Shown: in pieces, positions 40,146 to 63,034 of the stretch
Position numbering within the stretch: the first letter of the stretch is position 1
How the letters are laid out: every line of letters begins with the position of its first letter
Source: Naegleria gruberi
Lineage: Eukaryota
Direction: 5' to 3' (one strand)
Assembly (NCBI GenBank): GCA_000004985.1
Contig: GG738866.1
DNA: 64,000 bases
The notes under the pieces: model-generated
The model's database searches: none
Told to the model about the DNA's origin: nothing
The model's input: the letters and a program-made list of their open reading frames with translations, nothing else
Made by a program: the position numbers and the translations under genes

Positions 40146-43100
40146 ATGTCTTCCATATTTCACGTTCCAATCCTTATCCTTATTGTGCTTATTGCTTCAC
40201 AGTGGTGGTATTTAAATCAAGAAAGAACATTGAATCAATCATCATCACCAAATATCGATCTCGGCTTACTCTCAAAGGATTGTTCCTCTCAACTTGTTAA
40301 GAATTTCTACTTTGAGAAGGCTTTGAGCCAATATAAGGAAAAATGTCTTGTTGAAAAGAAGTGTGGTTCAGAATCATTAGAAGGTAGTGCTGAGAATGTA
40401 ATTAAGCAGATAGACGAATTAGTTTCCAATCAAAAAAAGCAAGCCTTGGAAAGAAGATGCAACAACCTTATTATTCATTCCGAAAATGTTCAAATTCTTC
40501 CAAAGCAAACAATTGTTGATCCAAAACTTGATGCAATTTGTGGTAATTCAACAGAATGCATTCAAACTGTTCATGAAATGATCATTTATCATCAGGCCTT
40601 TGCTTTTGCAGTTCAAAAGCTAAAGTTGGATCAAGAAAGTGTTAAGAGATTTTTACAATTACAAATCACCAATCTTGGAGAGAAGGCAAATTCAATTTTG
40701 GAATTTATCAGAAATCCTCAAGGTATTGAGGGTCCATCTGGTTTTTCCATTTCCTTGAAGCCAACACATTCCAGCCATCACTCATTCATCCAATCAGTTT
40801 TTTATGGTTTGATGGCATTGGCTTTGGGATGGTTGTATTTAATGTTCTGTACATTTGTTCAAGTAGAAGATGATTACTCGAAGAAAATGGCAGAGGCAAC
40901 TAGAGAGACAGATGAATTGAAAAAGAAATTGAAAGAGGCAACAGTAAAGGTTCTCGAAAAAGTTAAAGAACTCAATACTGAAAAGGAAAAATTAGAGCAA
41001 GATCTTTCAGATGAAAAGCAAACTTCAACAACATTGACAAGCGAGAAAAATCTACTAGAAAATGACCTTTCAACAATGACGACCAAGAAGAATCAATTAG
41101 AAAACGATTTAGCAAACGAAAAAAAATCTACAACATCATTGAGAACTCAAAAGAAAGAAATCGAGGACAAGCTTGAAAAATCCAAGAAGGAATACCAAGA
41201 CACTCTCAATAAGAAAGACAATGAACTAAAGAATACCAATGAAAAATTGAAAGTTGTGGAGAATGAGAATAAGCAATTCAAGAAGGATTTGGATACTAAG
41301 AGCAAGGATATTACCAACTTGGACAATTCGCTGAAGAAATCTAAGGAGCAAATTGCAGAACTTGAAAAATTGCATGCCCAACTAAAAAATGAAAAAGAAC
41401 AAACATTAAGAGATCTTTCGAATTGTAAACTCAGACTTGAAAAGGAGAATGAATTATGTTCTGCTCAACTCAAAAAGCTTGAACAAGAAATCAATAACCA
41501 AATCAATGATATGAAGCAAGTCGTCCAATCAAAGGTAGTATTAGAAAAACAACTCAAGAAAGTTGAGGAAATGCACAGTGAATTGAAGAGTGAGAAGGAC
41601 TTGCAGACCGAAGAATTTTCAAAAGAAAAGGAAAGATTGCTGGGAGAAATGAAGAATTTAGAAAATGAAGTAAAGAAACAAGCAAAGATTTGTGAAATAG
41701 AAAAGATCAACACTGAACTCTCTGAACAAATTCAACAATTATCATCTGAAAGAGATGCTATTCAAAACGCACTTAATGATGAAACTCAAAGATTAAACGG
41801 CCAAACAGAAAAGATCAGAAATGTATTGGTAGAGATCTCAACATTGAAGAATACAAATGAAGAACTTGAAGAAAAAATCAAATCTTTGGAGGAGGAAAGA
41901 TCAAACAAGGACCAAAGTATTGAATTTTTGCAAGAAGAAAGCAAGGTTCTATCTGAAACTGTTACAACACTTGAAACCAAATTGCAAGATATACATACAG
42001 AAGTTGAAGATATAAAGAAGCAATTGGAAGAAGTTGCATCTCTAAAGAAGCAATTGGGAGACAAGAAAATTGAATTGCAACAAATTAATGATGGCTTGAA
42101 TAATTTAGCTGTCCAACACCAAAAGGAATTGGAAAAAGAAAAACAAAAGATTGAAGAGTACGAAAGAACTATTACTGAACTCAAAAATTTACTTTCCGAA
42201 ATGAATAATGAGTTGATGGAAGACAAGTCAATAGAATTAGAGGCAGAACTGAAAGTTGTAAAGGAGTCTAACAGCAAGCTTTTGAAATGCATGGAAGAAA
42301 GAGATGAACAGATAACTAGCCTAGAGGAAGAAATTAAGGGTTTGAAGTCTCAAACCGAAACTCTTTCTGAAGAGGCAAAGAACTTGAAAGAATCATTGAA
42401 AGAAAAGGATAATGAAGTTGTGATATTGACAGAATTAGTGAAATCTGAAGATCAACTTTTGCAAGTTGACCAGGCTGAAATTAACAATTTGAGTAGTATT
42501 GTTAATCAAGCAGATGAAGGAATTACTTATCTTAAAAACGATTTGAATACTATTAGAACTGTTCTTGCTAGCACTGAAGAAAAGCTTAATAAGTCTGTAA
42601 AGGAGAAGGAAAGAATCTATGATGAATATGAAACTGTTCAAAGGGATGTAAAGAGATTAACAGAAGAAAAGCTTGAAATGGAGAAGGAAATCCAAATGTT
42701 AAAGCAAAGAAGCCCTCGTACATTCAAATCTTCACCATCAAGGGAGAAGGAAGAAAATAGGCGATTGAAGGAGAAGATTGAATTATTGGAAAAGAAACTC
42801 AAGTTATCTTTGAAAAAGATTCCATCTGATCAAAATCTCATCAACAACCTACCAATCATCAATACAACAGCTACCACGCCTTCCAGTTCTTCAACAAGTA
42901 CTTCACCAAGCACTGAACAGGATAAGGATGAATTAATCAAACGATTGAAGGAAAAGCTTGAAATTAAGGAAAACAAATTGAAGGCTGCCATTGTGAGTAA
43001 GCTTGAAGTTGTTGAAAGACTCAAAAACTATGAAGCAGATGCTCACTTCAGCACAGCTTCTGTTGGACCTGGAGCTAATCAACCACATCAGCAACCACAA

Positions 43101-43154
43101 CAACCAGTACAACAGAAAGTGGCAACTCCAAGAAATAACAAGAAGAATTTGTAA
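40146..43154 (+). CDS. Coiled-coil protein (about 1003 aa) with two transmembrane segments and a Cys-containing lumenal N-terminal domain; paralogue of the 54190-63034 gene
   Basis: The first ATG is at 40146 (MSSIFHVPILILIVLIASQWWY...; the ORF-track start at 40104 is TTG). A second hydrophobic segment VFYGLMALALGWLYLMFCTF is followed by about 750 aa of heptad-rich coiled coil. It shares the unit KQAKICEIEKINTELSEQIQQLSSERDAIQ with the minus-strand gene. Confidence 0.75.
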   Translation: MSSIFHVPILILIVLIASQWWYLNQERTLNQSSSPNIDLGLLSKDCSSQLVKNFYFEKALSQYKEKCLVEKKCGSESLEGSAENVIKQIDELVSNQKKQALERRCNNLIIHSENVQILPKQTIVDPKLDAICGNSTECIQTVHEMIIYHQAFAFAVQKLKLDQESVKRFLQLQITNLGEKANSILEFIRNPQGIEGPSGFSISLKPTHSSHHSFIQSVFYGLMALALGWLYLMFCTFVQVEDDYSKKMAEATRETDELKKKLKEATVKVLEKVKELNTEKEKLEQDLSDEKQTSTTLTSEKNLLENDLSTMTTKKNQLENDLANEKKSTTSLRTQKKEIEDKLEKSKKEYQDTLNKKDNELKNTNEKLKVVENENKQFKKDLDTKSKDITNLDNSLKKSKEQIAELEKLHAQLKNEKEQTLRDLSNCKLRLEKENELCSAQLKKLEQEINNQINDMKQVVQSKVVLEKQLKKVEEMHSELKSEKDLQTEEFSKEKERLLGEMKNLENEVKKQAKICEIEKINTELSEQIQQLSSERDAIQNALNDETQRLNGQTEKIRNVLVEISTLKNTNEELEEKIKSLEEERSNKDQSIEFLQEESKVLSETVTTLETKLQDIHTEVEDIKKQLEEVASLKKQLGDKKIELQQINDGLNNLAVQHQKELEKEKQKIEEYERTITELKNLLSEMNNELMEDKSIELEAELKVVKESNSKLLKCMEERDEQITSLEEEIKGLKSQTETLSEEAKNLKESLKEKDNEVVILTELVKSEDQLLQVDQAEINNLSSIVNQADEGITYLKNDLNTIRTVLASTEEKLNKSVKEKERIYDEYETVQRDVKRLTEEKLEMEKEIQMLKQRSPRTFKSSPSREKEENRRLKEKIELLEKKLKLSLKKIPSDQNLINNLPIINTTATTPSSSSTSTSPSTEQDKDELIKRLKEKLEIKENKLKAAIVSKLEVVERLKNYEADAHFSTASVGPGANQPHQQPQQPVQQKVATPRNNKKNL

Positions 43155-43327
43155 ATAATGTACCAATAAAAGAAATTGTTTAATATACTGTAAATCGTAT
43201 TGTTAATATAATAATAACTAAATTTTATTTTTTTGTAAATACACAAAAATATTATGGCGCCATTTTTTAGACTTCCAGCAAAAATTGGATTGTCAAAAGT
43301 GAAGCCTAAAAATCAAACAAAAAAAAA

Positions 43328-45426: not shown

Positions 45427-45834
45427 ATGTATAATCTAGAACAATTAGAACAACTTTCACTCTACGTGATGAGAAGGTTTGGAGAGTATTTCCAAGTCGT
45501 CTCAGCCTTTTCCAAAATTAATAACAACAACTCGGATAAGATTGAACAAATCAGAGGAAGAATTAACGAACAACGTGAATTGTTGGATACATTAAAGAAG
45601 GACGTTGAAATCAATAGGAACAAGTACTCGGAATCAGAAATCAAAGCCTTTGAAATTGAAATTGAGAAGAGTGAGAAGAGGCTAGCCAAGCAAGTTGAAA
45701 TTCTTCATCAATACGAAAATCAAGTTGATACAATGCATCATACGACATTTAATTTGAGTTTTAAATTAATTGTACAGGTGATCATTGCTCTAACTGTTTT
45801 GGCGTTAATGTTTTATATGGTGTTTTTTTGGTAG
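45427..45834 (+). CDS. Small tail-anchored coiled-coil protein (135 aa), with a SNARE-like topology but no clear SNARE motif
   Basis: ATG at 45427. A heptad-rich region is followed by the C-terminal transmembrane segment LIVQVIIALTVLALMFYMVFFW at the extreme C-terminus. Confidence 0.45.
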   Translation: MYNLEQLEQLSLYVMRRFGEYFQVVSAFSKINNNNSDKIEQIRGRINEQRELLDTLKKDVEINRNKYSESEIKAFEIEIEKSEKRLAKQVEILHQYENQVDTMHHTTFNLSFKLIVQVIIALTVLALMFYMVFFW

Positions 45835-46190: not shown

Positions 46191-49100
46191 ATGAAACAGT
46201 TACTCTCACCGAAATCTATATTACTTTTTATAATACTATCTATAGCTTCTATTGGATGGATGGTTATTGGCCAAGAGTTGCCCTACTCTTCATCATGGTC
46301 AATTACCAACTCGAATATTCAAACATGTAATACTATACGTGGTCAACAGGATGATTACTTTTATATGGGAGGTAAATTCAGTGGCAGTATTGATACAAGT
46401 GCTATAGGAGTCATATCTCCCGATAGATTTAATAACTCTGTAGTTTTGGCAACATCATTAACGAGTGAGGCGTATGCACTTAAGGTTCAAAAGTCAACTG
46501 GTAAGGTTGACTCATCTATTCAATTTGCACCAAGTGGCAATACAGAAACGATTCAAAGTTCAGAAATTATTTCAATAGGAACGAGTACTCAATTTCAAAT
46601 ATTTGCAGGAATTATCAATACAAATCAAGGAATTTTCATTTCAAAGTTTAACACCAATGGAATGGAATGGACACAAACCTATTTATTTTCGAGTGGAAAT
46701 TACATTACAGTGAGAGATTCAAAAGTGGTTGATACGAGTATTGTCATTGTAGGAACATACAGAGGAGACATTTCCATTAGTAATGGTTCAATTGCTCTCA
46801 CTTCATCCTCGAGTCAAGATTACGAAAACATGTTCATTGCTATTTTGGATATGACTGGATCTATTCAATATATCTATACTAATAATGGTAATAATGCTAA
46901 AGTCATACCACAGAATTTGCACTTGTCTTCAAATGGTGAATTTTGCTATGTTATGGGAGTTTTCAGCGGATCAACTTTGTCATTCACCAAATCCACTAGC
47001 TCATCAGAACAGCTAACTCTCACTTCAACAACTTCTACAGATCAGTACGATTTATTCCATCTCAAATATTCCATCACTAGTAAGGAGTTGGTTTGGCTCA
47101 TGGGCACTACAGGACCTCATCAGATGGACTATTCATACAAGATTGTTGGCAGCTCACCTTCGACCATTTATGCCTTCAGGGATATTATCATTGATCAGGG
47201 ATATAGTGAAAGCAGTGATTGTGGCAGCCAAACAGATGTTCCTATTGCAACTCTGACAAGGAATTTATTCACACTTCTCTCATCGAATGTTCTCTTTGGT
47301 GGAGCATCAGCCACAGGTTCTCAGAGTTTGAGCTTTTTCAAAGCTTTGGATTTTGCAGGATTTTCCAATTCAATTCTCTTCGATAATGGAACTACTTCAT
47401 CTGTTATGAACATTTCCAGATCGACACCACTAACTCTCTCTTCGACAGGATTTACTACCTGTCCTAACAAACAAGCTCTGATGAACTATTCCACAGAGTA
47501 TACATTGAATTATGCCAGTGGTTCCGAGACTATCCTTCTCAAATCCTATGTGAGCATACCAAAGTTATTGTTCACTTCCAATTACAATGTTGGTGTAATT
47601 AATTATGCTGGTATTACATCCACTTTGACATTTAACATGCCAAGTACACTGCTGAGTGTTATCGATAAGAATCTGGTTGTTGATGTTGGTGGAACGAAAA
47701 GGCCAGTGAAGAATTCCAATAATGTCTATACGGCAGACTTGTTTTCAACCACTGTAGGATGGAATAATATCACTATTTATTTCAATAATACTGCTCAGAA
47801 CAGGTATGATTTGATTTCTATGAATTCTGTCAAGACTTTCTTCTTTGATGATTCTTTGGTTATCAGTATTCAGAATAGTACAATTTTATTCAATAGCAGT
47901 ACTTTGAATAATGGTAGAGGTACACTAACATTGACAGGATTATTGAATTCCACGTATAATTTCCCACAGGAATATGTCAGCTCTATTATGTGTAGAGTGG
48001 CTCAACAAAATTTTGCTACCAATATTGATGGTAATCAGATTACATGTCAAAATGTTCCATTTTCAGAGAGGAACACGACAGTAGTACTTGTCTATAGATA
48101 CAGCAACTCTATTTTCTATAACATTTCAAGAAGTTTGGATTTGAGTTTTATTGAAACACGGACACTTACAACTTCTTCACAATACAGGGTGATTACAACA
48201 GATGAGCAAACCAAGGGATCGTTTGCTTTGTCTTTAACAATCGGTAAAACAATGGGCTCTTTGGATGTCAAATTGCAAGCAACAAATCAAAATGGAGCTG
48301 CTTCTTATTTACCATTTACAGTTTCATCAGGTACAAGTATTTCTGCAACCTTGGCAGTGGCTCAATTTGAAAAGGCAAATTTGAAATTTATGGTAAAATC
48401 TCAGAATGACTATGTGGATTTTACCAACACAATTTCTATTCAATTCTTGAAGCAAGTCAAGTTTACATCCTTGTCGAGTACCATTGATAATTCGAGACAA
48501 ATGAAGACCGCATTCAGTATTCAACCAAACCTGATAGATTCATTGAAATCTCAGCTAACTTGCCAATATAATGAGAGTCCAACATTGAGAACTGCTTTGA
48601 ATAGTACTGATAATACATGTAATATTGACAATCGATTCCTTTCCACAAACAATACTCTCCAATTATTGCTTAATATGGGAAATAATGTTTATTTACAAAT
48701 ATCAGACAGTATTTCATTGACATCTCCCTCACTACCAACAATATCCTTCCTATTTACTCCTAATTTTGGTATCAGTGGATTTACTAATATTACAACCGAA
48801 ATTACATCTCAAGATTTGATATTTGAACAATTGAAAAGAAATTTACAAATAGAAATTAATTCCATTCGTTATACACCAACTGTTGGGTCAGATGGAAAGG
48901 TTTCATTTCCACTTGTAACCTCAGTAGCCGGCTGGAATAATTTGACAGTTCTTGGAAAATATTCAACCAATGACACTTCATACTCTGTGATCAGCACTCA
49001 GAGTAAGATTTATTTCTTTAATACTCCACAAACAAATATTTTCACTTTCCCTAATGGAAATATCACACTCCTCACTCCATCCAGCAGTAGAAATTTCATG

Positions 49101-52100
49101 ATTGACTTGGTATTGAGTTCTCCCTTTGATATTCCTTATACCTTACTGAGTCCAAACAACTTTTTCTGTAACATATTTGGAGAGTCATATAGTGCCCAAT
49201 TTGTTTCCAGTACCAGAGTTCAATGTCAAAATGTAGTAAGCAGAGAAGGTGAAACTGATTCTTTTATCACAACTTCTATTCGAAATACCACATTTGAAAT
49301 ATCTTCGAGAAGTCTGTTCACCTTTGTTAAAACAAGAGAAATCAAACCTGTTGGAGTGTCTCTCATTCAATCTACTGATTTTTATATTGGAACATTGCCT
49401 CAAACACAAGCAACCTATTCGTTGCAGATTAATATTGAAGATAGCTTGTTCACTGCTCTACAAATTGAAAATACTCAAAAACTTGCTATTCAACTTACTG
49501 ATCTGCTAACCAATCAGAAACAAGTCAGATTCCCACAAATTACCAGAGGATTAAACATGTCTACTCTTTCACTCAACTTGGACGTTGCCACTTCCCAGTC
49601 CATTTTCAAATATGAAATTAGAGTATTGTTTAAAGGACTGGAGATTTCTCAAGTTGCATTAAAGTATCTTCTTGTGAGAGAATCACCAATTGGAAAGGTA
49701 ATTTCCTCCAGAGATTCCACTGATAATTTACTCATCAACATGCCAAGAATTTTATCAACAGCAACTTCAATTAGTGACGATGAAAAGTTAATTATGGACA
49801 GAGTGTACTGCTCTCTTGGAGATTCAACTCTTTCCAAGGTTACCTATTCTGTGAGTGGTGGTATTCAATGTAAATTTGCAACTGATTTCACATCAACACA
49901 AACCAAATCAGTTCAACTCTTCATGTCCATCAATACTGTGGCCACAAATAGTTCAGTTATCAAAATATCCTCCAACTCACAACAAGCATATCCAATCTAT
50001 TGTTATTCAATTCCTCACTATTTACCAACTGTTTGTTCTTCAAAGGGAACTTGTAAGCAAACTGATAACTGTACATGTACCAACAATTTCCAAGGAAATG
50101 ATTGCAGTTTCACCCAATGTTTTGGAATTGCATCCACTGATAAGACTGTCTGCAGTGGATACGGTCAGTGTCCAACCTCAAATAATTGTGTTTGTAATGC
50201 AGGATTTAGTGGCACAAGATGTGAAAATAAGGTCATGTATGTTTCTGAGGACAAATCATGGCTATCCACCAGTGAATCTATGAGCAGTTTACCAAGATCG
50301 CAACTCTCTGCTCTAATAGAAACAGAGAGTTTGTCCAAAGTTGAATGTGCATCTTTATTAGCAACTGCATCTATTGATACCATTGGAGTTGATGCATTTT
50401 GTTTTGTGAACTCTGTTGATATTGTAATCATGTTGAACAGGAACGTTATGAACAATACTGTATTACTATCTTCCTCGACTATTGGTAGCATCCTTTCGAA
50501 ATCATTTTCACAATATCAAGTGCTTGACACTAAAGGAAAGTCAACCAGTCCAGAAATTCTATTAAGAACTAGTTTCTCAAGTGTGAATTTCCCTGCTGTG
50601 GTTGAACCGCTCATTGTCACTGCATCACCTCTCTCAAATTTAGGTCTATCATGGCAAAGTGATGATCCAACTATTAACAGTCAACTTTCTTCATTTGCCA
50701 ATCAGTCAATTATCAAACTGAATTTAGGAGCAAAAACAAGACAAAATGTAATTTCTAATGGAGCTGTTAATTTGGTTTTGCAAGTTGCCGATTCAACATT
50801 CAATACTTTGACCAAATATTCCACTAAATTGCTTTTGAATCAATCTTCCAACTCTGGAGAAGCAATATTCAATTATGGAGGATCTCAAATTGAATGCCAA
50901 TCCTTTGCCTCATGTGATATTGCCTTTAGTGTTGCTCCTATTAAGGGGTCTTCTATTAGGTCATCTTTCAATCCTGACATTGGAAATATAACTACAAACT
51001 ACATTCATAATTTGAAAAGTTTTGCAGAGGGTTGTTCTACTGTATATTCCCTGCGTAGCAGTGAGAGCAAACAACTGTGTATTAAGATTAGAGATAAGGG
51101 TGTTATTCAATACTATTTGGATGTCAATACTCAACAAGATAATTCCATTGTAGTCACTTTGAGTCAATTCAACACTTCCTCTAAAGTATATTCAATTATT
51201 ACCAGTTCTAACTCTGATATTATACAATTGATTAATTTGAATACTAACACTTCTGTGCAAGGCGCGAAGGATGGAAGTAGTTCAGCAGTATATTTCAAGG
51301 GAATCAAAGAGCAAGAACCATACGAGATTAGATTTACTAGTTCATTAGGAAAGGCCTCCCTCAAGATTCAATATTCCACAAGTATGCAACTCAAGCTCTT
51401 AACATTCATTCCTAAAGTAATGGGAAGAAAATCTTCATTGATATTGTCTTCTCTGGTTGACTCTGATAGCAGCACAGTTCAACAAGTTGATTTCCTGTTA
51501 ACAAAGAAAGGCCAATCACAATCCACGTCTCTTCCAATAGTTCAACAATATAATGATCTGACCTTTTCACAAGCCCTGTTGAATGCTTCACTTTTAGATA
51601 GTGGATCTTTCTACATTCTGAGAGTTCAATCAAGGAATGCTAAAGGACATGTAACCTATATTGAACAATCTTTCTATGTACAATTAGAACCAAACTATAA
51701 TATCAATTGTGCTATTACTCCAAAAGAAGGAATTGCTTATGAAACAGAATTTACAATTTCATGTTTATCCAATAATTTAGATTTAGATACTTATCAATTC
51801 CTCATAACGAATGGTACTCATCAATTAGAGCTTTCCAAAGGAAGAAAGAGAGCATTCTTTACTAGAATTGGATTTTTACAAAATGCCAAACTTCAAGTCA
51901 AAACTAATGATGTTTGGAATAGTGAAAAGACAACAGAGTTCCCAATCCAACTCAAACATCCAAAACAAGTTTATCAAACATCTTTAGAATTTTATCAATA
52001 TTTAACAAGAAAAGTTCAGGATCTTCTCAATGAAGAAGTTTCTCCAAACAGTTTAGGATTTGATTATGTCAACAGTGTCATCACCTTCATGTCAATTCTT

Positions 52101-54182: not shown

Positions 54183-54189
54183 AAGTTTA

Positions 54190-57033
54190 TTATTTCCTTG
54201 GTGATCTTGGTGAAATTTGATCGTAGGAAACAGCAGCAAAAGCTTTTTGCAAGCTAGCTAACTTGATCTCAATTTCATCTAATAATTGAGGAGGTGAAGA
54301 AGGAATTGGGTAAAAATAATCTTCTCTCAAAGGTGATTGTGGAATATCCATATGCCCTTGGGAGATTGATAAACCTTCTTTAGTTGTTTCTGCCATGATA
54401 GTAGCTAATTGCTCAAGTTGGCCAATAGCAAATTTCAAATCATTCTCGAGTTTCTTTGTGTAAGCTTCCAAACCTTGTATACCGTCCGTAAGAGTCTTGA
54501 CGGTTTCTTGTTGGCGTAATATTTCCCCATTCAGATTTTCAATTGTTCCTCTTAGTTCTGAACTTTCCTTTGCGTTTTGGTTTTTTAACTTTTCCAACGC
54601 TTCTTGCTTGTCAACAAGTAGCTCCTTTTGAGATTGAGATAATTTTTCATTCTCTTGGAGAATACCATGTAAATCTTTCATAGACTCCTGCAAGAGTTGA
54701 ATCTCCTTCTTTGCCTGACTCTTTTCCTTCTCTAAAATTGATCGTAGCTCGTCTTCTCTTATTTTCATTTCAGCATCTGCTTTTTTCTTCTCATTAAATA
54801 CCTTTTGCATTTCATCTTTTAGCAACTTTAAAGTTTCTGTCTGCAAGAAAATACCTTCTTCTAGCTGTTTTGTTTTTTTCCTTTCCTTTTCTAAATAATC
54901 TTTAAATGTTTCCAAATCATTCTTAAGGCGCCCAATATCTTCAACCGATTTTTCTTGATATTCTTTAAACTCCTCTCCCTTGGTTCTCACTTTTGATTTT
55001 TCCTTTTCCAGCAATTCTGCTTTTGAATTAACCAACTCTTTAAGCTTGTTTGTTTCTTCTTTTTCAACCAAAAGGTCCATCTCAATCTTGCTCAAGTCAA
55101 TTTCCATATTCTGTTTATACAGGTTCATTTCCTTTTCAAATTCTTTCTTTTCATTCATAATTTTTTCTATCTCTTTGTTTTTTTGTGTAAGCTCTTCTTC
55201 AAATTTCTTAAGGAAGTTGTTTAAATCTCCAATTTCTTTCTGATTTTGATTTTTCAAGTCTGTCAAGCTTCTATTTTCCTCTGAAAGTTCGTTTTCTATA
55301 TGCTTCAAACTCTCTACCACCTTCTCAAGTTCTTGTTTAACTGCTGATTCTCTTTGTAACTTGGATTCACCTTCTAAGTTTGCACGTTCAATGCCTTCAA
55401 GAGATTTTTCTAATTCCTGCTTGACATTTGCGAGCTCATTGGATAAATCTTCTTCTTTTTGATTCTTTTCAATCATCAACTGTTTGATATCAACAAGATC
55501 TTTGTGTAATTCTCTTACAGAGTTACTTTCTCTAGTGATTTGTTCTTCCCTTTCGCTTAACTTTTCTTTAAGGGAGCATATCAAGTTCTCCTTTTCAGAT
55601 AATTGAGTGGATAGATTGGCCTTCTCAGATATTATAACGGCCAATTGTTCTGTTGCATTCTTGGCCTCCTCTTCAAGAATTTTAAGCTTGATTTCTCTTG
55701 AAGATTTATCTTCCAAAAGAGAATTGAGTTCCTCTTGAAGATTTAATATATCTTTTTTCAGATTTGTCAAGTCTTGTTGCAACTCACTGTTTTCGTGCAT
55801 TAAATCTCTCACCCTATGCTGTTGTGCCTCTATGAAACTCTCAGTTTTGACTCTTGATACAGTATTCTCAGATACGATTTCTTTTAGTCTCGAGTTGTCT
55901 TTTTCGAGATCATTAACACGGTTTTTGAGCTTTTCAGTTTCATCCAAGATTGCTTGCTTTTCATCTTTTTCAGATTGGATATTTTCTGTTAGTGAGATTA
56001 CCAAGTTAGATTTTTCTTCGTGCAATTTATCAATAGTAGTTCTCAAGTTTTCAACTTCACTCTCGCTTGAATGAAGAATACCTTGTATTTTAGCTTTAAT
56101 GTCTTCTTTTTCTTTCTTGAGGTCATCCCTTTCCTTTTCGATAGCAGACGATTTGTTTTCCAATTGTTTCAACTTTCCATCTGTATCTGAAATAACTTTT
56201 TGTAGATTTTCAATGTTCAAATCAGAAACTTCCAATTTAGAACATAAATCCTTATTAATATCTTTGAGAGCTACAATCTCATTATTAAGAACAGAACATT
56301 CTTGTTGTAATTGGTCATTCTTCGATTTCAATTCTTCTAGAGAGGATGTAATATCTTGAATCCTTGCTTCCGTATCCAATAACTTTTCAGTAAGGGTGGT
56401 ATTTTGGGAAATAAAATTAATTTTCTCATTTTCTGCAATAGTAGTCATTTCTATTAGCTGTTGTTCGAGCTCTTTGTACTTCTGCATTTGATGTGACAAA
56501 TCAGACTTTGAATTTGAAAGCTCGTTATCGAGAGCTTCCTTTTGTGAAAGTAGTTGTAGATTTTCATCCTTGGTGGATTCAATTGTGTTTTGCTGATCTT
56601 GGACTTGTGAGGTGCAGTCATCAAGTGACTCCTTTAATTTTAGAATTTCTGATTGTGATTGAGAGTACTTTTCAGTTAACTCTTGATTTTTCTCCTCTTG
56701 GACTTTTCTAAATAGATCAAACTCCTTGCATTTAGAATTGATCGATTCATTCATAGAAAATAATTTCGATTCCTTTTCCTGTAAGAGTTCTTCTTTTTCT
56801 GCAATATTATTTCCCAAGGTTAATATTTTATCTTTCAACATATCCATTGTGGAATTCTTGCCGTAAAGCTCATTTTTCATTCGATTAAGTTGATCTTCCA
56901 AATTGCTTAGTGAGTTTGTAAGCTCGTTGTTGGTAGTTTCTAATGTTTGCTTTTTCTCAAAAAGGCCAGTGTTAATATTTTCCATTTCACAAATCTTTGC
57001 TTGTTTCTCTTCGACAATTTTCTTTTCCTTCAT
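54190..57033 (-). CDS. Giant coiled-coil gene, segment 4 of 4 (947 aa; the C-terminus is Pro/Ser-rich and ends ...DQISPRSPRK)
   Basis: This segment starts with an ATG (57033) at the third frame change (MKEKKIVEEKQAKICEMENINTGL...). It overlaps the segment 3 ORF by 47 nt. Confidence 0.55.
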   Translation of the reverse strand: MKEKKIVEEKQAKICEMENINTGLFEKKQTLETTNNELTNSLSNLEDQLNRMKNELYGKNSTMDMLKDKILTLGNNIAEKEELLQEKESKLFSMNESINSKCKEFDLFRKVQEEKNQELTEKYSQSQSEILKLKESLDDCTSQVQDQQNTIESTKDENLQLLSQKEALDNELSNSKSDLSHQMQKYKELEQQLIEMTTIAENEKINFISQNTTLTEKLLDTEARIQDITSSLEELKSKNDQLQQECSVLNNEIVALKDINKDLCSKLEVSDLNIENLQKVISDTDGKLKQLENKSSAIEKERDDLKKEKEDIKAKIQGILHSSESEVENLRTTIDKLHEEKSNLVISLTENIQSEKDEKQAILDETEKLKNRVNDLEKDNSRLKEIVSENTVSRVKTESFIEAQQHRVRDLMHENSELQQDLTNLKKDILNLQEELNSLLEDKSSREIKLKILEEEAKNATEQLAVIISEKANLSTQLSEKENLICSLKEKLSEREEQITRESNSVRELHKDLVDIKQLMIEKNQKEEDLSNELANVKQELEKSLEGIERANLEGESKLQRESAVKQELEKVVESLKHIENELSEENRSLTDLKNQNQKEIGDLNNFLKKFEEELTQKNKEIEKIMNEKKEFEKEMNLYKQNMEIDLSKIEMDLLVEKEETNKLKELVNSKAELLEKEKSKVRTKGEEFKEYQEKSVEDIGRLKNDLETFKDYLEKERKKTKQLEEGIFLQTETLKLLKDEMQKVFNEKKKADAEMKIREDELRSILEKEKSQAKKEIQLLQESMKDLHGILQENEKLSQSQKELLVDKQEALEKLKNQNAKESSELRGTIENLNGEILRQQETVKTLTDGIQGLEAYTKKLENDLKFAIGQLEQLATIMAETTKEGLSISQGHMDIPQSPLREDYFYPIPSSPPQLLDEIEIKLASLQKAFAAVSYDQISPRSPRK

Positions 57034-60000
57034 CCTCCAACTTCCTCATTTCTTCCAACAGTCTTTCCTTTTCTTTAGAAAATTCTTCACTCTTCTTTTC
57101 ATTTTCCTTCTCCAATACATTGATGGTCTCTTCAAGTTTCAATACGCAATTATCATACTTATTCTTATTCTGTTCCATTTCTTGTCTTGCCTTTTCCAAT
57201 TCATTCTTTGTATCTTCAAGCTGTCTAATTATTTCTTCTTGCTTTTCACTTAGTGCCAATTTCTTTGCCTCAAGATCTAAATTATGTTGTTCAAGTACTT
57301 GAACCTGTTTTTTCAAATCTTCAATACAGAGAGTATCTTGTTGTGCTCTCTGTTTCAACTCTACGCTAGTATTTTCTGCTTCATTAAAGCGTTCTTCAGC
57401 ATTTGCACGAAGGGTTTCTTCTTTCAACAAACCAATTTTCAAAATATCTAGCTTCTCTTGAAGAACTACTCGATCACTTTCAAGCTTCTTCTTGTCATTA
57501 TTTAAATTCTTTTCTGACTCTTTCAGAATTGAAATTGACTTTTCTAGTTCTTTCACTTTATCTGTTTGCTTCTTAGCATTCATGGTAGCATCCTTGAGTT
57601 CATATTTCAATGTATCAATAGTTTTACCAAGATATTTCACTTCTTCTAGGAGTTTTGATTTCTCTGATTCTAATTGCTTAATTTTTGAATTGTGTGAATT
57701 AACTTCTTTTGCATTTTCTTTGAGTTGCTCTTTTTGGGTGTTCATAACATCTTGAAGAACTTTGATTTTCTTTTCTTGAGTATTACACATTATCTGTGTT
57801 TCTTCTTTGTCTTTAGTCAATAAGTCAGCCTCCTTAGATTTATCAAGAATCTCTTTAGACAATCTTGTTATTGCTTCAGAAGTAGTTCGTTCAAGATTAT
57901 ACTTTTCTGTATTTAATTGAGATATATATTGATCCAACATAGTCTTCTGTTGCTCAACATTGTTAATGCTCTCTTTCAGCTCTTGGTTGGAGGATTCAAG
58001 ATTCTCTATAAATGATTGTTTTTCTTTTGATGTTTGAATTTCCTTGGTAAGAGTTTCTTGAATAACATTTCTTTCAGATGATAATTGTTGAATTTGTTCA
58101 GAGAGTTCACAAATCTTTGCTTGTTTCTCCTCGACTATTGCCTTTTCCTTCTTTACTTCATCCTCCAACTTCCTCATTTCTTCCAACAGTCTTTCCTTTT
58201 CTTTAGAAAATTCTTCACTCTTCTTTTCATTTTCATTTTCCAATACATTGATGGACTCTTCAAGTTTCAATACACAATCACCATACTTATTCTTATTCTG
58301 TTCCAATTCATTCTTTGCATCTTCAAGCTGTCTTATTATTTCTTCTATATCTTTCTTTAAATTCTGTTCTGACTCTTGCAGTGTTTCAAGGGCCCTCTCC
58401 AGCTCTTTCACTTTATCTTTGTACATTTCTAAATTGTTGGTAGCGTCTTTGAATTGAGATTCTAAATTATTAATAGTTTGACCAAGATCCTCCAATGTTC
58501 GTTGGCGATTATCATCTTCCTGCTGTTTGTCATTAATAACCGAAGCAAGTTTAATCTCGCCTTGTCGAACATTTTCACGTAAATTGTTTACAACTGTTTC
58601 CAATTCTTGATTACATTTGGTGAGGTTTTGCACTGTGTCTTCAAGATGTTTCAATTTATCAAGAAGGGTAATATTTGAGGATGCCAGTTGATTTGAAAGT
58701 TCCTTTTCTTTTCTGAAACCATATTGTATATTTTGTAGCTCCTGTGAAATACGAGTGTTTTCTTTTTCTAATTGATTGTTTGCTGTTGATAAAGCCTGGT
58801 TATCGTCCGATAACTTGAGCAGCAAATCTTCATTTTGTCTAATATTGTCTGTCAGGTTTGATTTCTCTGATTCCAACTGTTTGATTAGTGAAATTTGTGA
58901 AATGGTTTCTTTAGCACTTTCTTTGAGTTGCTCTTTTTGAGTGTTCAAAAGGTCTTGAAGAACTTTGATACTCTTGTCTTTAGCATTACATGCTGTTTCA
59001 GTGTTGCTTATCCTTTCTTTAAGCTCTTTAGTAGAAGTCTCAAGAAGGTTCTCCATTATTGATTGTTGCTCTTTTGATAATTGAATTTCATTATTGAGAG
59101 ACTTTTGAATGGCATCTCTTTCAGATGATAATTGTTGAATTTGTTCAGAGAGTTCAGTGTTGATCTTTTCTATTTCACAAATCTTTGCTTGTTTCTCCTC
59201 AGCTATTTCCTTTTCCTTCTTTACTTCATTTTCTAAATTCTTCATTTCTTCCAACAGTCTGTCCTTTTCTTTAGAAAATTCTTCACTCTTCTTTTCATTT
59301 TCCTTCTCCAATACAGTAATAGATTCCTTTAGTTTCAATACACAATCATCATACCTATTCTTATTCTGTTCCAGTTCATTCCTTGCATCTTCAAGCTGTC
59401 TTATTATTTGTTCTCTATCACTCTCAAGGCTCTTCTTGTCATTATTTAAATTCTTTTCTGACTCTTTCAGAATTGAAATTGACTTTTCTAGTTCTTTCAC
59501 TTTATCTGTTTGCTTCTTAACATTCATGGTAGCATCCTTGAGTTCATATTTCAATGTGTTAATGGTTTTACCAAGATATTTCACTTCTTCTAGGAGTTTT
59601 GATTTCTCTGATTCTAATTGCTTAATTTTTGAAGCATTTTCTTTGAGTTGCTCTTTTTGAGTGTTCATAACATCTTGAAGAACTTTGATTTTCTTTTCTT
59701 GAGTATTACACGTTGTCTGTATTTCTGCTTTGTCTTTAGTCAATAAGTCAGCCTCCTTAGATTTATCAAGAATCTCTTTAGACAATCTTGTTTTTTCGTT
59801 TTCCATGACTTCCTTTTGGGTTTTCTTTTCTCCAGAAAGATCTATTATTTTGTTTTCTAACTGTTTAATACGTGACTGCTGTTCAAGTAAATCAAGTTGT
59901 TTAGACTCTAAATTATTAGCCAACTCTATGTTCTGAGTTTTGATTTGGGTCAAGTCTTTCTCTAATCCTGTTATTGTTTCATAATTTGCTTGTTGAAGAT

Positions 60001-60262
60001 TGTCCTTTTCTGTATTTAATTGAGATATATATTGATCCAACATAGTCTTCTGTTGTTCAACATTGTTAATGCTTTCCTTCAACTCTTGGTTGGAGGATTC
60101 AAGGTTGGCTATCATTAATTGTTTGTTTTTTGATACTTGAATTTCGTCGTTGAGCGTGAATTGAATGGCATCTCTTTCAGATGATAATTGTTGAATTTGT
60201 TTTGATAGCTCAGTGTTGATCTTTTCTATTTCACAAATCTTTGCTTGTTTCTCTTGAGTCAT
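56987..60262 (-). CDS. Giant coiled-coil gene, segment 3 of 4 (1091 aa, internally duplicated)
   Basis: This segment starts with an ATG (60262) created exactly at the frame change (MTQEKQAKICEIEKINTEL...). It contains duplicated ~1 kb and ~2 kb units. Confidence 0.55.
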   Translation of the reverse strand: MTQEKQAKICEIEKINTELSKQIQQLSSERDAIQFTLNDEIQVSKNKQLMIANLESSNQELKESINNVEQQKTMLDQYISQLNTEKDNLQQANYETITGLEKDLTQIKTQNIELANNLESKQLDLLEQQSRIKQLENKIIDLSGEKKTQKEVMENEKTRLSKEILDKSKEADLLTKDKAEIQTTCNTQEKKIKVLQDVMNTQKEQLKENASKIKQLESEKSKLLEEVKYLGKTINTLKYELKDATMNVKKQTDKVKELEKSISILKESEKNLNNDKKSLESDREQIIRQLEDARNELEQNKNRYDDCVLKLKESITVLEKENEKKSEEFSKEKDRLLEEMKNLENEVKKEKEIAEEKQAKICEIEKINTELSEQIQQLSSERDAIQKSLNNEIQLSKEQQSIMENLLETSTKELKERISNTETACNAKDKSIKVLQDLLNTQKEQLKESAKETISQISLIKQLESEKSNLTDNIRQNEDLLLKLSDDNQALSTANNQLEKENTRISQELQNIQYGFRKEKELSNQLASSNITLLDKLKHLEDTVQNLTKCNQELETVVNNLRENVRQGEIKLASVINDKQQEDDNRQRTLEDLGQTINNLESQFKDATNNLEMYKDKVKELERALETLQESEQNLKKDIEEIIRQLEDAKNELEQNKNKYGDCVLKLEESINVLENENEKKSEEFSKEKERLLEEMRKLEDEVKKEKAIVEEKQAKICELSEQIQQLSSERNVIQETLTKEIQTSKEKQSFIENLESSNQELKESINNVEQQKTMLDQYISQLNTEKYNLERTTSEAITRLSKEILDKSKEADLLTKDKEETQIMCNTQEKKIKVLQDVMNTQKEQLKENAKEVNSHNSKIKQLESEKSKLLEEVKYLGKTIDTLKYELKDATMNAKKQTDKVKELEKSISILKESEKNLNNDKKKLESDRVVLQEKLDILKIGLLKEETLRANAEERFNEAENTSVELKQRAQQDTLCIEDLKKQVQVLEQHNLDLEAKKLALSEKQEEIIRQLEDTKNELEKARQEMEQNKNKYDNCVLKLEETINVLEKENEKKSEEFSKEKERLLEEMRKLEDEGKENCRRETSKDL
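57460..60250 (-). repeat. Nested tandem segmental duplications inside the coiled-coil gene, with units of about 1.1 kb and about 1.96 kb
   Basis: Positions 57487-57875 and 59443-59805 are more than 95% identical. Positions 57880-58100 match 59990-60200. The ctttacttcatcctccaacttcctcatttcttccaacag block recurs at about 57030, 58150 and 59220. Confidence 0.75.
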
Positions 60263-61637
60263 CTATTTCCTTCTTCACTTCATTCTCCAACTTCTTCATT
60301 TCTTCCAACAATCTGCCGTTTTCTTTTGAAAATTCTTCTAATTGTTTCATTCTTGAATTAGCTTCATTAGCATTTTCTTTGAGTTGCTCTTTTTGAGTGC
60401 TCATGAGGTCCTTGAGAATATTGATTTGTTTCTCTTTAGCGTTACATGTTGTTTCAGCATTGCTAATCTTTTCTTTCAACTCTTGATTAGTGTGCTCGAG
60501 ATTATCGATAACCGATTGTTTGTCTTTTGATACTTGAAATTCCTTCTTAAGAGTTTCTTGAATAGAATCTCTTTCAGATGATAATTGTTGAATTTGTTTT
60601 GATAGCTCAGTGTTGATCTTTTCCATTCCACAAATATTTGCTTGTTTCTCTTGAACCATTTCTTTTCCCTTCTTCACTTCATTCTTCATTTCTTCCAACA
60701 GTCTTTCTCTTTCCTTTGCTAAACGGCAATCTTCCAACCGCATATCTTCAATCCTTTTTTCATGTTCATCCTTCAAGTTATCATACATTTTCTCAACTTC
60801 TAAAATTTGTACATGTAGACCTCTCAATTCATCATTTCTGTGTGCTAAATCTTCACTAAGATTTTCTATTGTTTTCATAGCCTCGGCAACTTGCTGCTCG
60901 GTTTTGAAGAGTGCTTCACCTTTACCAAGGTTTTCTCCAGTTAAATTTTCAACCTCACCCAGCAATTCTTCAATTTTCTTTTCATTCTCACAAATGGTGT
61001 GACAAAGATCCTGTTTGTTTTGTTCGAGAGACTTGGATAACTGCACTAGATCTTCTAAATATTGGTGCATTTTCTCCTTCTCTTGTAAAAGTTGCTGCCT
61101 CTCAGAAGCAATCTCATTGTTAGCTTGATCGAGTTGGTCAATTTTCTTCTTTTGTTCCATTGTTTGTTCTTTCTCTACATTGAGTTCGTTTAATCTTTCC
61201 GAAATTGAGTGTTGTAAAACGCTAATTTTCTCATCCTTTCTTTCGATATCACTCTTAAGTTGTTCGGTTTCATTCTCCATCACTTTCAACTTCTCAACAA
61301 TAATATTTGCCTCTTCTCTTCTCTTGTTGCAACAGTCCTCAAGATCTTTTTCTCTAGCATTTAGTCTTTCTGTCAATCGCTTTATATCCTCCTCGAGTTG
61401 TGTTGTTCTTTGAGATTTAGTATCCTGTTCATAGGTTAAATCCTTAATTTTTTCTCGGAGACTTTGGGATTCTACTTGTTTTTTCTCCCACATATTAGTA
61501 ATTTTTGCTAGCTTTTCATCTTTCTCATTTAATTGGAGAGAAAGGCTATCATTTCTTGTTTGTAAAGCATTCAACTCTTCTTCCTTCTGTTGGTTAAGTT
61601 GGTCTAGAGCAGAAATATTGGACAGAGAGTCTTTCAC
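60231..61637 (-). CDS. Giant coiled-coil gene, segment 2 of 4 (frame shifted relative to segment 1; no ATG at its start)
   Basis: This frame opens with GTG immediately after a TAA and overlaps the segment 1 stop by 4 nt. The coiled coil continues (KDSLSNISALDQLNQQKEEELNAL...). The segment ends ...EVKKEIDDSRETSKDL*. Confidence 0.5.
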   Translation of the reverse strand: MKDSLSNISALDQLNQQKEEELNALQTRNDSLSLQLNEKDEKLAKITNMWEKKQVESQSLREKIKDLTYEQDTKSQRTTQLEEDIKRLTERLNAREKDLEDCCNKRREEANIIVEKLKVMENETEQLKSDIERKDEKISVLQHSISERLNELNVEKEQTMEQKKKIDQLDQANNEIASERQQLLQEKEKMHQYLEDLVQLSKSLEQNKQDLCHTICENEKKIEELLGEVENLTGENLGKGEALFKTEQQVAEAMKTIENLSEDLAHRNDELRGLHVQILEVEKMYDNLKDEHEKRIEDMRLEDCRLAKERERLLEEMKNEVKKGKEMVQEKQANICGMEKINTELSKQIQQLSSERDSIQETLKKEFQVSKDKQSVIDNLEHTNQELKEKISNAETTCNAKEKQINILKDLMSTQKEQLKENANEANSRMKQLEEFSKENGRLLEEMKKLENEVKKEIDDSRETSKDL

Positions 61638-63034
61638 TTATCTTTCAGCTCCGATATCTTTGTGTTTTTGGTATCTATAATTTTTGCAGAGTTTTCATTT
61701 TCCTCACGTAAAGAAGAAACTTCTCCTTTAAGTTTGGTAACTATTTCAGAAATATTGATTGTTTCTCTTTCTAATTCTGCAGATCTTTCCGTAGATCTTT
61801 CCTTTTCTTTGGTTACCTTTTTTAACTCTTGGAAAATATTATTATGTCTTATTTGTACCTCATTTTCTTTTTTCTGAGATTCTGTCTTTAATTGTTGGAT
61901 TTCGTTTTCCAACTTTTCTTTAAGAGATGTGGCTTCTTTCTTTTGCAAGGATAAGTCTTTATCAAGACCCCTATTCTTTTCTGTTAGAGAAGAAACTTTC
62001 TTCGATAATTCTTCTTCTTTCTTCTTTGCTGCCTCCTTTTCTTTTGCACTTTCTGCATGAAGTTTGGTAGTTGAGGTCTTGTATTGCTCATCTAATCTCT
62101 CAAGGTTTGAGTTTTGAGTTCTTGCTTCGGTTTTTGCTTCCTCGAACTTTTGTTCAAGATTAGCTATTGTGTCTTTGAGCGATGCAACTAAATCTCTGCT
62201 TTCTTTTAATTCATTCTGTTTGATTTTGCTTCTTTGATTAGCAGACTCTAGATCTTTGTTCAGCCTATCTATTCTATTCTCCAATGAGGTTTGCTCCAAT
62301 GTGAGAGACTTGTATTGCATGACCATCAATACCACCATAATACCAAAAATGATAGATGTTACAACCTTATCTTCCCTCTCATCATCAGTGTTATCCATTG
62401 TGGTCTTGACAGAAATATCAAATCCTGAATATCCCTCCAACCCTGGTACAGTTCTAATGAATTGTGAAACCTTATCGGGCTCATCAAATAATTTGGAAGC
62501 CTTTGTTTCCATGAACTTTCTGATGTGTTGAGTGTTGAGGTTTGTCTTTTCATTTGCATATTCAAAGACTTGCATATAAATAATTACTTCAAAGACTGCA
62601 CTCATACACTTTGTGGAGCCTCTACAAATCGAATAGACACGATGATCAACCTCCTTCTTTAAAATTGGAACAACCTGCTCATGATGAATAACAAGATTAC
62701 CACACTCACTATTCAAAGACTTTTCTAATTGCCTGGAAATCATTGCATCAATTTTTCTATCTAAATTGGCCACACCACAGTATTTGTTATCGGAAGCGCA
62801 ACCATTCTTGTATTCTGTTAAGGCTTGAACAAAATAAAAATTCTTGATGAGTTGTGAATGGCAATCTTGCTCTAGCAGAGACAAATCGATGAGTGAAGTC
62901 TCGTTAATTATTATGGTCTTTGATGAGGGTATTGTTGTAAAATCGCTCGACTTGAATGGTGTATAAAATTGGCTAATTATCAATACCACCAAGGCTAAAG
63001 CACTAAGGAACAAATTTATCCTTGTAGCTTGCAT
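61634..63034 (-). CDS. Giant coiled-coil gene with two transmembrane segments, segment 1 of 4 (N-terminal lumenal and transmembrane domain plus coiled coil, 466 aa up to an in-frame TGA)
   Basis: ATG at 63034. The N-terminal domain is homologous to the 40146 gene: LLEQDCHSQLIKNFYFVQALTEYKNGC against LLSKDCSSQLVKNFYFEKALSQYKEKC; ECGNLVIHHEQV against RCNNLIIHSENV; ICRGSTKCMSAVFEVIIYMQVF against ICGNSTECIQTVHEMIIYHQAF. The second transmembrane segment is SIIFGIMVVLMVMQY. Confidence 0.7.
   Translation of the reverse strand: MQATRINLFLSALALVVLIISQFYTPFKSSDFTTIPSSKTIIINETSLIDLSLLEQDCHSQLIKNFYFVQALTEYKNGCASDNKYCGVANLDRKIDAMISRQLEKSLNSECGNLVIHHEQVVPILKKEVDHRVYSICRGSTKCMSAVFEVIIYMQVFEYANEKTNLNTQHIRKFMETKASKLFDEPDKVSQFIRTVPGLEGYSGFDISVKTTMDNTDDEREDKVVTSIIFGIMVVLMVMQYKSLTLEQTSLENRIDRLNKDLESANQRSKIKQNELKESRDLVASLKDTIANLEQKFEEAKTEARTQNSNLERLDEQYKTSTTKLHAESAKEKEAAKKKEEELSKKVSSLTEKNRGLDKDLSLQKKEATSLKEKLENEIQQLKTESQKKENEVQIRHNNIFQELKKVTKEKERSTERSAELERETINISEIVTKLKGEVSSLREENENSAKIIDTKNTKISELKDK

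Follow-up and report, generated by a model that had tools for sequence, protein, structure and literature searches.

Kinectin (KTN1) and p180 (RRBP1) carry an N-terminal anchor followed by a very long cytosolic coiled coil, with essentially no lumenal domain. STIM1/2 are built, in order, from a signal, a helical lumenal domain of ~200 aa, a transmembrane (TM) segment, a cytosolic coiled coil, a Ser/Pro-rich region and a basic tail. CLIMP-63 (CKAP4) is a type II protein whose coiled coil lies in the ER lumen, and in KASH proteins the TM segment is C-terminal and carries a lumenal peptide some 30 aa long. The membrane attachment of golgins is close to the C-terminus and uses tail-anchor TM domains or GTPase binding (PMC5840792). 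Here, we analyzed a 64,000-nucleotide stretch of Naegleria gruberi contig GG738866.1 (hereafter the window), in which two long coiled-coil genes, A (40146–43154, + strand) and B (54190–63034, − strand), face each other across an intervening receptor ORF (46191–54182), as a preliminary description had stated. Our joint reading, to which we assign a probability of roughly 0.5, is that they belong to a Naegleria-type family of membrane-anchored proteins with cytoplasmic rods and arose by an inversion-linked duplication in the N. gruberi lineage.

The proposal that the two genes share an N-terminal module held up well. A BLASTP comparison of their first 285 aa gave 83/238 identities (35%, E=2e-46), and judged by this alignment genes A and B are true paralogues. 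Both encode a hydrophobic N-terminus, a ~180-aa domain, a TM helix and a heptad-periodic rod; six Cys positions are conserved between them, and every motif quoted earlier (DC.SQL.KNFYF, C.NL.IH, IC..ST.C and G.EG.SGF.IS.K) is present in the alignment. Gene A (locus NAEGRDRAFT_67250) is a complete ORF of 1,002 aa beginning with the ATG at 40146. The deposited model is only 614 aa long, with 40962–42125 removed as spliced-out, and looks wrong, lacking 388 codons. By hydropathy and the family alignment, gene A opens with a hydrophobic segment (aa 1–23, 40146–40214, +) that would serve as a signal peptide or, alternatively, as a signal-anchor. The putative lumenal or extracellular domain that follows (aa 36–212, 40251–40781, +) contains the six Cys, two of which (Cys132 and Cys138) flank an N-x-S/T sequon, and leads into a hydropathy-predicted TM segment (about aa 215–240, 40788–40865, +). 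The corresponding parts of gene B are a hydrophobic segment (aa 6–24, 62963–63019, −), a Cys domain 41% identical to that of gene A (aa 48–222, 62369–62893, −) and a TM segment (aa 223–241, 62312–62368, −), the first and last again placed by hydropathy.

A search of 1.84 billion proteins with an HMM of the N-terminal module returned only six, with E-values from 1e-8 to 1e-138: the two N. gruberi models, C9374_003907 of N. lovaniensis and three proteins from one ENA metagenome. A seventh member was found in a third Naegleria-type genome. All named HMM matches are labelled "predicted" or "uncharacterized", the module has no Pfam match even at E≤10 and no PDB match by sequence, and we found no mention of any family accession in the literature. 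These searches bear out the suggestion that the family was unrecognised. It is small and fast-evolving and has so far been found solely in Naegleria-type genomes. The N-terminal part is common to all seven members, and the TM segment and start of the coiled coil to all six that are long enough. After the N-terminal hydrophobic segment, the family is marked by the motifs C-x2-Q-x2-KN-x2-F, C-x-NL and C-x5-C. The invariant Cys are Cys46, Cys132 and Cys138; 5–6 of the seven members also have each of Cys67, Cys73 and Cys105, and the sequon between Cys132 and Cys138 occurs in 6/7. AF2, run on an alignment of six sequences only, gave a mostly helical model of the gene A domain, a bundle that also includes two short strands (pLDDT 81, pTM 0.79).

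The preliminary description had given each protein two TM segments. Two hydrophobic segments are indeed present in each (the strongest stretches being aa 1–19 and 222–240 in gene A, aa 6–24 and 223–241 in gene B), although the first may be a cleaved signal peptide, in which case the protein would be single-pass type I. Alternatively, the first segment could be an uncleaved signal-anchor, giving a hairpin with two membrane crossings, a lumenal Cys loop and both termini in the cytosol. In genes A and B this segment runs for about 20 residues without a charge, its Kyte-Doolittle averages over 19 residues (2.0–2.1) match those of the second, and AF2 renders it as a 23-residue helix. However, the N. 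lovaniensis ORF, which starts MRLWVLSLCVGLCVMHGWC, has a shorter, signal-peptide-like h-region of about 13 residues, and the small residues that follow the h-region, such as A-W-A in member P0010, resemble those of cleaved signal peptides. We consider a hairpin quite possible, if a little short of an even bet. The two alternatives differ only in where the N-terminal five residues lie, and leave the orientation of domain and rod unchanged.

The rod had earlier been left as "cytosolic or lumenal"; the sequence features point to the first option. Because the domain with conserved Cys and an N-glycan sequon follows the N-terminal signal and precedes the TM segment, the rod would fall on the opposite, cytoplasmic side whether that signal is a signal peptide or a signal-anchor. 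A lumenal or extracellular rod, similar to a surface fibril or to the spacer that CLIMP-63 forms in the lumen, would place the N-terminal domain in the cytosol. This arrangement was raised in the preliminary description and has no direct support; we give it almost no credence, as a hydrophobic stretch at the very start of the protein would direct the domain behind it into the ER lumen, the conserved cysteines and glycosylation sequon sit in that domain, and Cys are few in the rods and none is conserved across members.

The rods themselves are true heptad coiled coil, as indicated by composition, by an a/d hydrophobic contrast of 0.51 (0.27 ± 0.01–0.02 in shuffles) and by proline-free spans of about 610 aa in gene A and about 2,650 aa in frame-corrected gene B. 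In gene A the rod covers aa 246–856 (40881–42713, +), contains no proline and is net acidic. By rise per residue, it would extend about 90 nm, and that of frame-corrected gene B up to about 390 nm. Pfam matches to the rods of gene A and all four gene B ORFs were sub-threshold and generic to coiled coils. Across the family, rods are acidic and C-terminal tails hydrophilic and mostly basic; that of gene A (42714–43151, +) is Ser/Thr/Pro-rich (25% S+T+P), has a net charge of +10 and includes a short second helical stretch. The tail of gene B is neutral and member P0007 has an early proline, so a basic tail is not universal.

Gene B had been described as a single gene spanning 63034–54190. Instead, the locus holds four consecutive long ORFs on the − strand (61634–63034, 60231–61637, 56987–60262 and 54190–57033) separated by three frame disruptions; with three frame corrections they join into a protein of 2,946 aa. 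The first ORF begins with the ATG at 63034 and encodes the N-terminus homologous to gene A. The deposited annotation (NAEGRDRAFT_48880, 466 aa) comprises this ORF only and ends at the first disruption, and this truncated model looks wrong. At disruption 1 (61634–61640, −), read directly from the sequence, the TAA of the downstream frame (61640–61638) and the TGA of the upstream frame (61636–61634) leave a single position for a frame-joining 1-nt indel. Disruptions 2 (60231–60262, −) and 3 (56987–57033, −) are deletions of 2 bp and 8 bp, respectively, relative to sister repeat copies, and each lies just upstream of an EKQAKICE unit. The coiled-coil region at 57009–60650 (−) is internally duplicated, with super-repeats of ~1.06–1.12 kb whose copies are 74–91% identical in nucleotide sequence.

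These disruptions are either very recent or artefacts. An 8-bp deletion is atypical of base-calling error, so gene B may yield the 466-aa product alone or be dying. If gene B were a recently dead pseudogene, or the source of an N-terminal product only, then N. gruberi would have one functional member, gene A, and the "pair" would be a gene with its decaying duplicate. Three independent disruptions fall within 8.8 kb, and at two of them bases are missing that sister repeats retain; these speak for this explanation, as do the intact 8-kb receptor ORF next door and the end point of the deposited annotation. Against it, no stop codon interrupts the ORFs past the first disruption (468, 1,091 and 947 aa) in a genome of 34% GC, the internal repeat copies, located downstream of the frameshifts, show dN/dS values of 0.28–0.40, and misassembly of the ~1.1-kb repeat array would explain the disruptions equally well. 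The stop-free ORFs and dN/dS values imply that any inactivation was very recent. We regard loss of the full-length product as a tentative alternative and do not favor it.

Genes A and B also share a 30-aa unit within their rods, found once in gene A (KQAKICEIEKINTELSEQIQQLSSERDAIQ at aa 511) and as five degenerate copies in gene B (at 60650, 60253, 59197, 58129 and 57009). The unit was correctly reported in both genes, but gene A matches 30/31 of the residues quoted, as its copy is preceded by K, not E. The DNA encompassing the unit in gene A (41579–41797, +) aligns with gene B copy 59197 at 79% identity, the alignment extending over 243 nt. Its core, at about 41674–41767, is identical to gene B at 93/94 positions and includes an 85-nt perfect match. 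DNA-level similarity is confined to the shared unit, with none elsewhere in either gene. The perfect match is consistent with a recent gene-conversion tract between genes A and B.

The receptor gene between them (46191–54182, +) encodes 2,663 aa with a signal peptide, EGF modules, a TM segment (aa 2288–2306) and a kinase-like domain in which HRN replaces HRD and GEF replaces DFG; the stop codons of the receptor and gene B are 7 bp apart. Immediately 5′ of the receptor is a small ORF (45427–45834, +), a homologue of which likewise precedes the receptor in N. lovaniensis, and this conservation indicates the extent of an inverted block. In each of the three Naegleria-type genomes, a sortilin/Vps10 gene (at 37292–39949, +, in the window) is the upstream neighbor of a family member; the window also contains a formin gene at 26864–30133 whose product shows 100% identity with an N. 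gruberi protein. The inverted pair around the receptor is not conserved. In N. lovaniensis, where the stretch was read as far as the receptor, a single copy follows sortilin and is convergent with the receptor, and the third genome has one copy adjoining sortilin. The lumenal domains of A and B are 41% identical to each other and about 24% identical to those of other members, and the two genes group together in an NJ tree. Being mutually closest, they point to a duplication specific to the N. gruberi lineage, which on the strength of gene order is tied to inversion of the receptor block.

In this history, one ancestral gene would have lain between sortilin and a convergent receptor and been duplicated with inversion of the block containing the family gene, the receptor and the small upstream ORF. 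Gene A would have retained the sortilin side and gene B the tail-to-tail receptor junction, with gene B later lengthened through internal ~1.1-kb duplications and the two genes probably still exchanging sequence by gene conversion. The tail-to-tail adjacency survives the inversion in two species, N. gruberi (7-bp gap) and N. lovaniensis (95-bp gap), as might be expected if the family protein and receptor pseudokinase formed a functional module, for example with the rod scaffolding the cytoplasmic pseudokinase. However, sortilin and four to five more neighbors are also syntenic, so the linkage is not specific and may be plain synteny. In addition, adjacency in eukaryotes seldom implies function, and no receptor adjoins the metagenomic members L002 and L003, whose contigs are 3.9–4.7 kb long. 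We consider such a module very unlikely.

Returning to the joint reading, the N-terminal hydrophobic segment would target the protein to the ER, leaving the ~180-aa helical domain facing the lumen or outside, probably disulfide-bonded and N-glycosylated. A single membrane-spanning helix would then lead to an acidic, proline-free cytoplasmic coiled-coil rod, ending in most members in a predicted non-helical, Ser/Thr/Pro-rich, basic tail. In the most probable mode of action, that of a cytoplasmic rod anchored in a membrane, lumenal domain and coiled coil would together maintain a parallel dimer in the membrane, with the rod holding the basic tail away from its own membrane for contact with another surface, and the protein would act as a tether, spacer or scaffold. 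A more specific proposal, which we think unlikely, is a Naegleria-specific tether with a lumenal fold absent from the PDB, which would have evolved independently of the ER-anchored rods of STIM or kinectin type that it parallels; its basic tail would dock on a second membrane or the cortex, and rapid internal duplication together with conversion between the inverted paralogues would tune its rod length.

In Naegleria, a genus that includes the pathogen N. fowleri, the Golgi is unstacked and interphase microtubules are absent. If our reading is true, Naegleria owns a family of membrane-anchored giant rods whose lumenal domain matches nothing known and which could mark or organize a structure of the cortex or endomembrane system; the cell biology of this lineage is poorly mapped. 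The locus would also be a clean case of inversion-associated duplication followed by gene conversion, and the practical gain is correction of both deposited gene models. Current ideas are not overturned; this is an orphan, lineage-specific family.

The likeness to kinectin, CLIMP-63 and golgins drawn in the preliminary description holds for architecture but not for the golgin anchor. The TM golgins (giantin, golgin-84 and CASP) likewise have an extensive cytoplasmic coiled coil and a one-TM anchor, whereas the hydrophobic segments of A and B, at aa 1–24 and about 215–241 only, are N-terminal to the rod, and the lumenal domain precedes the TM segment; no golgin family was found in a Pfam scan of gene A and the four gene B ORFs (E≤0.01). 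CLIMP-63 is also single-pass with a long coiled coil but differs in that the A/B rod is probably cytosolic, given the N-terminal signal, conserved Cys and sequon. KASH/nesprin proteins similarly join a giant cytoplasmic rod via one TM segment to a short, partner-binding lumenal element, but the polarity of A/B is opposite and their lumenal domain is 180 aa; hydropathy revealed no C-terminal hydrophobic segment, and the only KASH-related Pfam match, KASH_CCD, is a coiled-coil match far below threshold (17 bits; cutoff 43.3). With STIM1/2, the family shares the order of parts, a likeness that is architectural only: the Pfam scan found no EF-hand, SAM or SOAR, there was no fold match to EF-SAM, and the A/B rod is 5–20 times longer. 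Homology to kinectin/p180 was found neither in the N-terminal HMM search of 1.84 billion proteins nor in the Pfam scan of the rods. Like kinectin and p180, in architecture only, A and B have an anchor N-terminal to a long cytosolic coiled coil, inserted co-translationally rather than as a tail anchor, but they differ in bearing a conserved, Cys-containing lumenal domain of ~180 aa.

The first ~240 amino acids of the gene B ORF, which opens with an ATG at 63034 on the minus strand, align with those of gene A at 35% identity (E = 2e-46), far beyond chance. Gene A, on the plus strand, runs from an ATG at 40146 to a stop at 43154 as a single ORF of 1,002 amino acids. Within the alignment we found six cysteines at corresponding positions, as well as every motif quoted in the preliminary description, which had proposed that the two genes share an N-terminal module. 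Each protein carries two hydrophobic segments (aa 1–19 and 222–240 in A; aa 6–24 and 223–241 in B), and the second is followed by a rod in which Glu, Lys and Leu make up ~44% of residues. The long coiled coil described there is borne out for both genes: hydrophobic contrast at a/d positions was 0.51, compared to 0.27 ± 0.01–0.02 for shuffled sequences, and the proline-free span extends over ~610 residues in A and ~2,650 in B. The core observation, paralogous N-terminal modules joined to coiled-coil rods, is real.

Both rods also contain the unit quoted as common to the two genes, in a single copy in A (aa 511) and in five increasingly degenerate copies in B, although A matches only 30 of the 31 quoted residues, with a K in place of the E. 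Rods across the family are net acidic (–3.4 to –7.5 per 100 aa). The first proline is followed by a Ser/Thr/Pro-rich tail, with a net charge of +10 in A, +8 in the N. lovaniensis member and +4 in P0008, a family protein that also has internal coiled-coil repeats of its own. The last 40 residues of another member, P0007, are basic, and the tail of gene B is neutral.

The deposited gene models depart from these reading frames. The model for A (XP_002677530, NAEGRDRAFT_67250; 614 aa) excises 40962–42125 as an in-frame, 1,164-nt GT...AG intron. Because this segment is open, has coiled-coil character and holds the unit common with B, the called intron is probably an annotation artefact; judging from the sequence, the deposited model is probably wrong and the true A protein is probably 1,002 aa. 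The model for B (XP_002677609, NAEGRDRAFT_48880) covers the first ORF only. The stretch from 63034 to 54190, given earlier as one gene, is not a single reading frame but comprises four ORFs of 466, 468, 1,091 and 947 aa. Only a 1-nt indel at a single, defined site would restore the frame at the first break (61640–61634). An intron rescuing this break was ruled out, as a by-hand check revealed no GT...AG pair of suitable phase and length 3' of 61637. The second and third breaks are 2-bp and 8-bp deletions relative to sister copies of an internal repeat, and each lies just 5' of an EKQAKICE unit. With three frame corrections applied, gene B would encode 2,946 aa. Its length derives from internal duplications of ~1.06–1.12 kb whose copies are 74–91% identical by self-BLAST; TRF, with a period limit of 500 nt that falls below the ~1.06-kb repeat period, found no tandem repeat. 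The ORFs past the breaks are free of stops and the repeat copies within them have dN/dS values of 0.28–0.40, indicating that the frames of B were translated for the greater part of their history. Either very recent mutation or misassembly of the ~1.1-kb repeat array accounts for the disruptions.

To identify further members, we searched 1.84 billion representative proteins with a profile built from the two N-terminal modules, which matched six: N. lovaniensis C9374_003907, both N. gruberi models and a further three from one ENA metagenome assembly. In a third genome of the Naegleria type (Logan SRR29240419), a walk that began at the formin orthologue led to a seventh, which shares 59% identity with the N. 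lovaniensis protein. Every one of the seven has the N-terminal hydrophobic segment and Cys domain, and the transmembrane segment and start of the coiled coil are present in all six of sufficient length. Eleven positions are invariant (L42, C46, Q49, K52, N53, F56, Q96, N107, L108, C132 and C138), and six of the seven members have an N-x-S/T sequon between C132 and C138. Between N. gruberi and N. lovaniensis, the lumenal domain shows ~24% identity and the adjacent formin (26864–30133; best orthologue N. lovaniensis C9374_003913) 65%, so by this sequence comparison the family evolves fast. The N-terminal module had no Pfam match even at E ≤ 10, the rods gave only sub-threshold matches to generic coiled-coil entries, and a literature search returned no paper naming any family accession. 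The suspicion that the family had gone unrecognised was thus well founded: it is a previously undescribed orphan, and every member seen to date comes from a Naegleria-type genome.

The three metagenomic members (L002, L003 and P0010) are divergent and come from a single assembly, ENA ERZ27315067, on contigs of 3–4.7 kb; L002 has a GC content of 38.5%. They suggest that a Naegleria-like organism not yet sampled carries several paralogues. At the locus in the third Naegleria-type genome (22365–22883), the member ORF ends at 22377 and the next called gene starts on the same strand at 22365; the rod of this member may extend further, past an intron or a change of frame.

AlphaFold2 modeled the 260-aa N-terminus with a pLDDT of 72.5 and the lumenal domain alone with a pLDDT of 81.2 and a pTM of 0.79, models that are provisional as the alignment had only six rows. 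The modeled lumenal domain has five long helices of 23–26 residues, two of which meet at a two-residue kink, together with a single short helix and a pair of short strands. Foldseek with this model gave a best match of E = 0.64, and a profile search of PDB sequences gave a single match at chance level; among solved structures, no relative of the domain can be recognised.

From its place at the very N-terminus, the first hydrophobic segment should direct the domain downstream of it into the ER lumen, a placement that agrees with the conservation of both the cysteines and the glycosylation sequon. The segment after the lumenal domain, at ~aa 215–241, would then put the rod on the cytoplasmic side. 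The first segment of A and B has ~20 uncharged residues and equals the second in hydrophobicity. The un-spliced N. lovaniensis ORF starts MRLWVLSLCVGLCVMHGWC, with the short h-region of a classic signal peptide, and in P0010 the h-region is followed by A-W-A. The preliminary description had given each protein two transmembrane segments forming a hairpin; two hydrophobic segments are present, but the hairpin is uncertain for A and B, since the first may be a signal peptide. The orientation is the same whether or not the first segment is cleaved, and of the two locations offered for the rod, cytosolic or lumenal, we infer the cytosolic one.

The gene that A and B flank (46191–54182) encodes a receptor with a signal peptide, an ectodomain of ~2,260 aa with EGF modules, a transmembrane segment at aa 2288–2306 and a kinase-like domain in which HRN replaces HRD and GEF replaces DFG. 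Its N. lovaniensis orthologue likewise lacks both Asp residues, making the earlier label of pseudokinase reasonable. The receptor gene converges with gene B, their stops just 7 bp apart (54183–54189), so their 3' UTRs must overlap on opposite strands.

Synteny does not support conservation of the inverted pair. The N. lovaniensis order is sortilin (+), one family member (+) and, on the opposite strand, the receptor orthologue, with 95 bp between stops; no second family copy was found in the 22 kb examined. In the third Naegleria-type genome, sortilin is again followed by one member. In these comparisons the arrangement is specific to the N. gruberi lineage. A small ORF (45427–45834) adjoining the N. 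gruberi receptor upstream is homologous to sequence directly upstream of the N. lovaniensis receptor, which indicates that the block of small ORF, receptor and family member lies in opposite orientation in N. gruberi and N. lovaniensis. The deposited 3,081-aa model of the N. lovaniensis receptor apparently joins the small upstream gene (21758–22147 of that locus) onto it; the long receptor ORF opens with a signal peptide of its own in each species. Gene B retains the ancestral tail-to-tail junction with the receptor and gene A the ancestral position after sortilin, and the two are closest to each other (41% lumenal-domain identity; paired in a neighbor-joining tree). The simplest history would be that an inversion in the N. 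gruberi lineage also duplicated the gene at its breakpoint. No counterpart was seen, in the comparison sequence examined, for the 202-aa ORF and the BTB gene that separate A from the small ORF.

At the DNA level, A and B match nowhere outside the shared unit. There, A 41674–41767 and the copy at 59197 (–) in B, ~17 kb apart, match perfectly over 85 nt (93/94 in the core); upstream, past a 24-nt indel, another 29 nt are identical. Divergence is greater in the flanks, and identity across the full 243-nt alignment is 79%. Identity extending to synonymous sites argues for recent gene conversion between the inverted paralogues and not for protein-level constraint, and the 85-nt match looks like a conversion tract.

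The window (~34% GC) is eukaryotic and contains formin, PARG, sortilin, BTB, EGF-repeat and protein-kinase genes. Its formin has 100% identity to an FH2 protein of N. gruberi. Two EGF-repeat ORFs, 10358–14602 (1,414 aa) and 14457–20696 (2,079 aa), overlap by 146 nt on the same strand in different frames and may be one ~3,400-aa gene broken by an intron or frameshift. Sortilin/Vps10 lies in two ORFs ~108 nt apart (37292–38416 and 38525–39949), presumably split by a short intron; its N. lovaniensis orthologue is one unbroken ORF (6980–9727 of that locus). Two genes are related to ADP-ribosylation: PARG (poly-ADP-ribose glycohydrolase; 19–1332) and a WGR-domain gene (35596–36957).

Nothing in the family findings runs against expectation, and the architecture falls in an already known class, that of membrane-anchored coiled-coil rods. 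Read from its anatomy, a family protein would be a cytoplasmic rod anchored in a membrane and dimerised through its lumenal domain together with its coiled coil. The basic, flexible tail would be projected ~90 nm (in A) or more from the home membrane, as computed from the standard coiled-coil rise of ~0.15 nm per residue, and could there make contact with a second membrane, a filament system or the cortex, giving the protein a role as tether, spacer or scaffold. We rejected a nuclear-fusion protein of the Kar5/Brambleberry type, given its different domain order and the lack of a Pfam match; those proteins have a lumenal Cys-rich domain and coiled coil with a C-terminal transmembrane segment. 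The likeness first drawn to kinectin, CLIMP-63 and golgins survives as a kinectin-type architecture, but not as membership in the kinectin or golgin families. Golgins are C-terminally anchored by definition (PMC5840792), which excludes the family; it does not belong with the KASH proteins and probably not with CLIMP-63. STIM has a similar order of parts (lumenal helical domain, transmembrane segment, coiled coil, S/P region and basic tail), although the family is not a member. Closest in working mode would be kinectin/p180, which likewise pairs an N-terminal anchor with a cytosolic rod, although the family does not belong to it.
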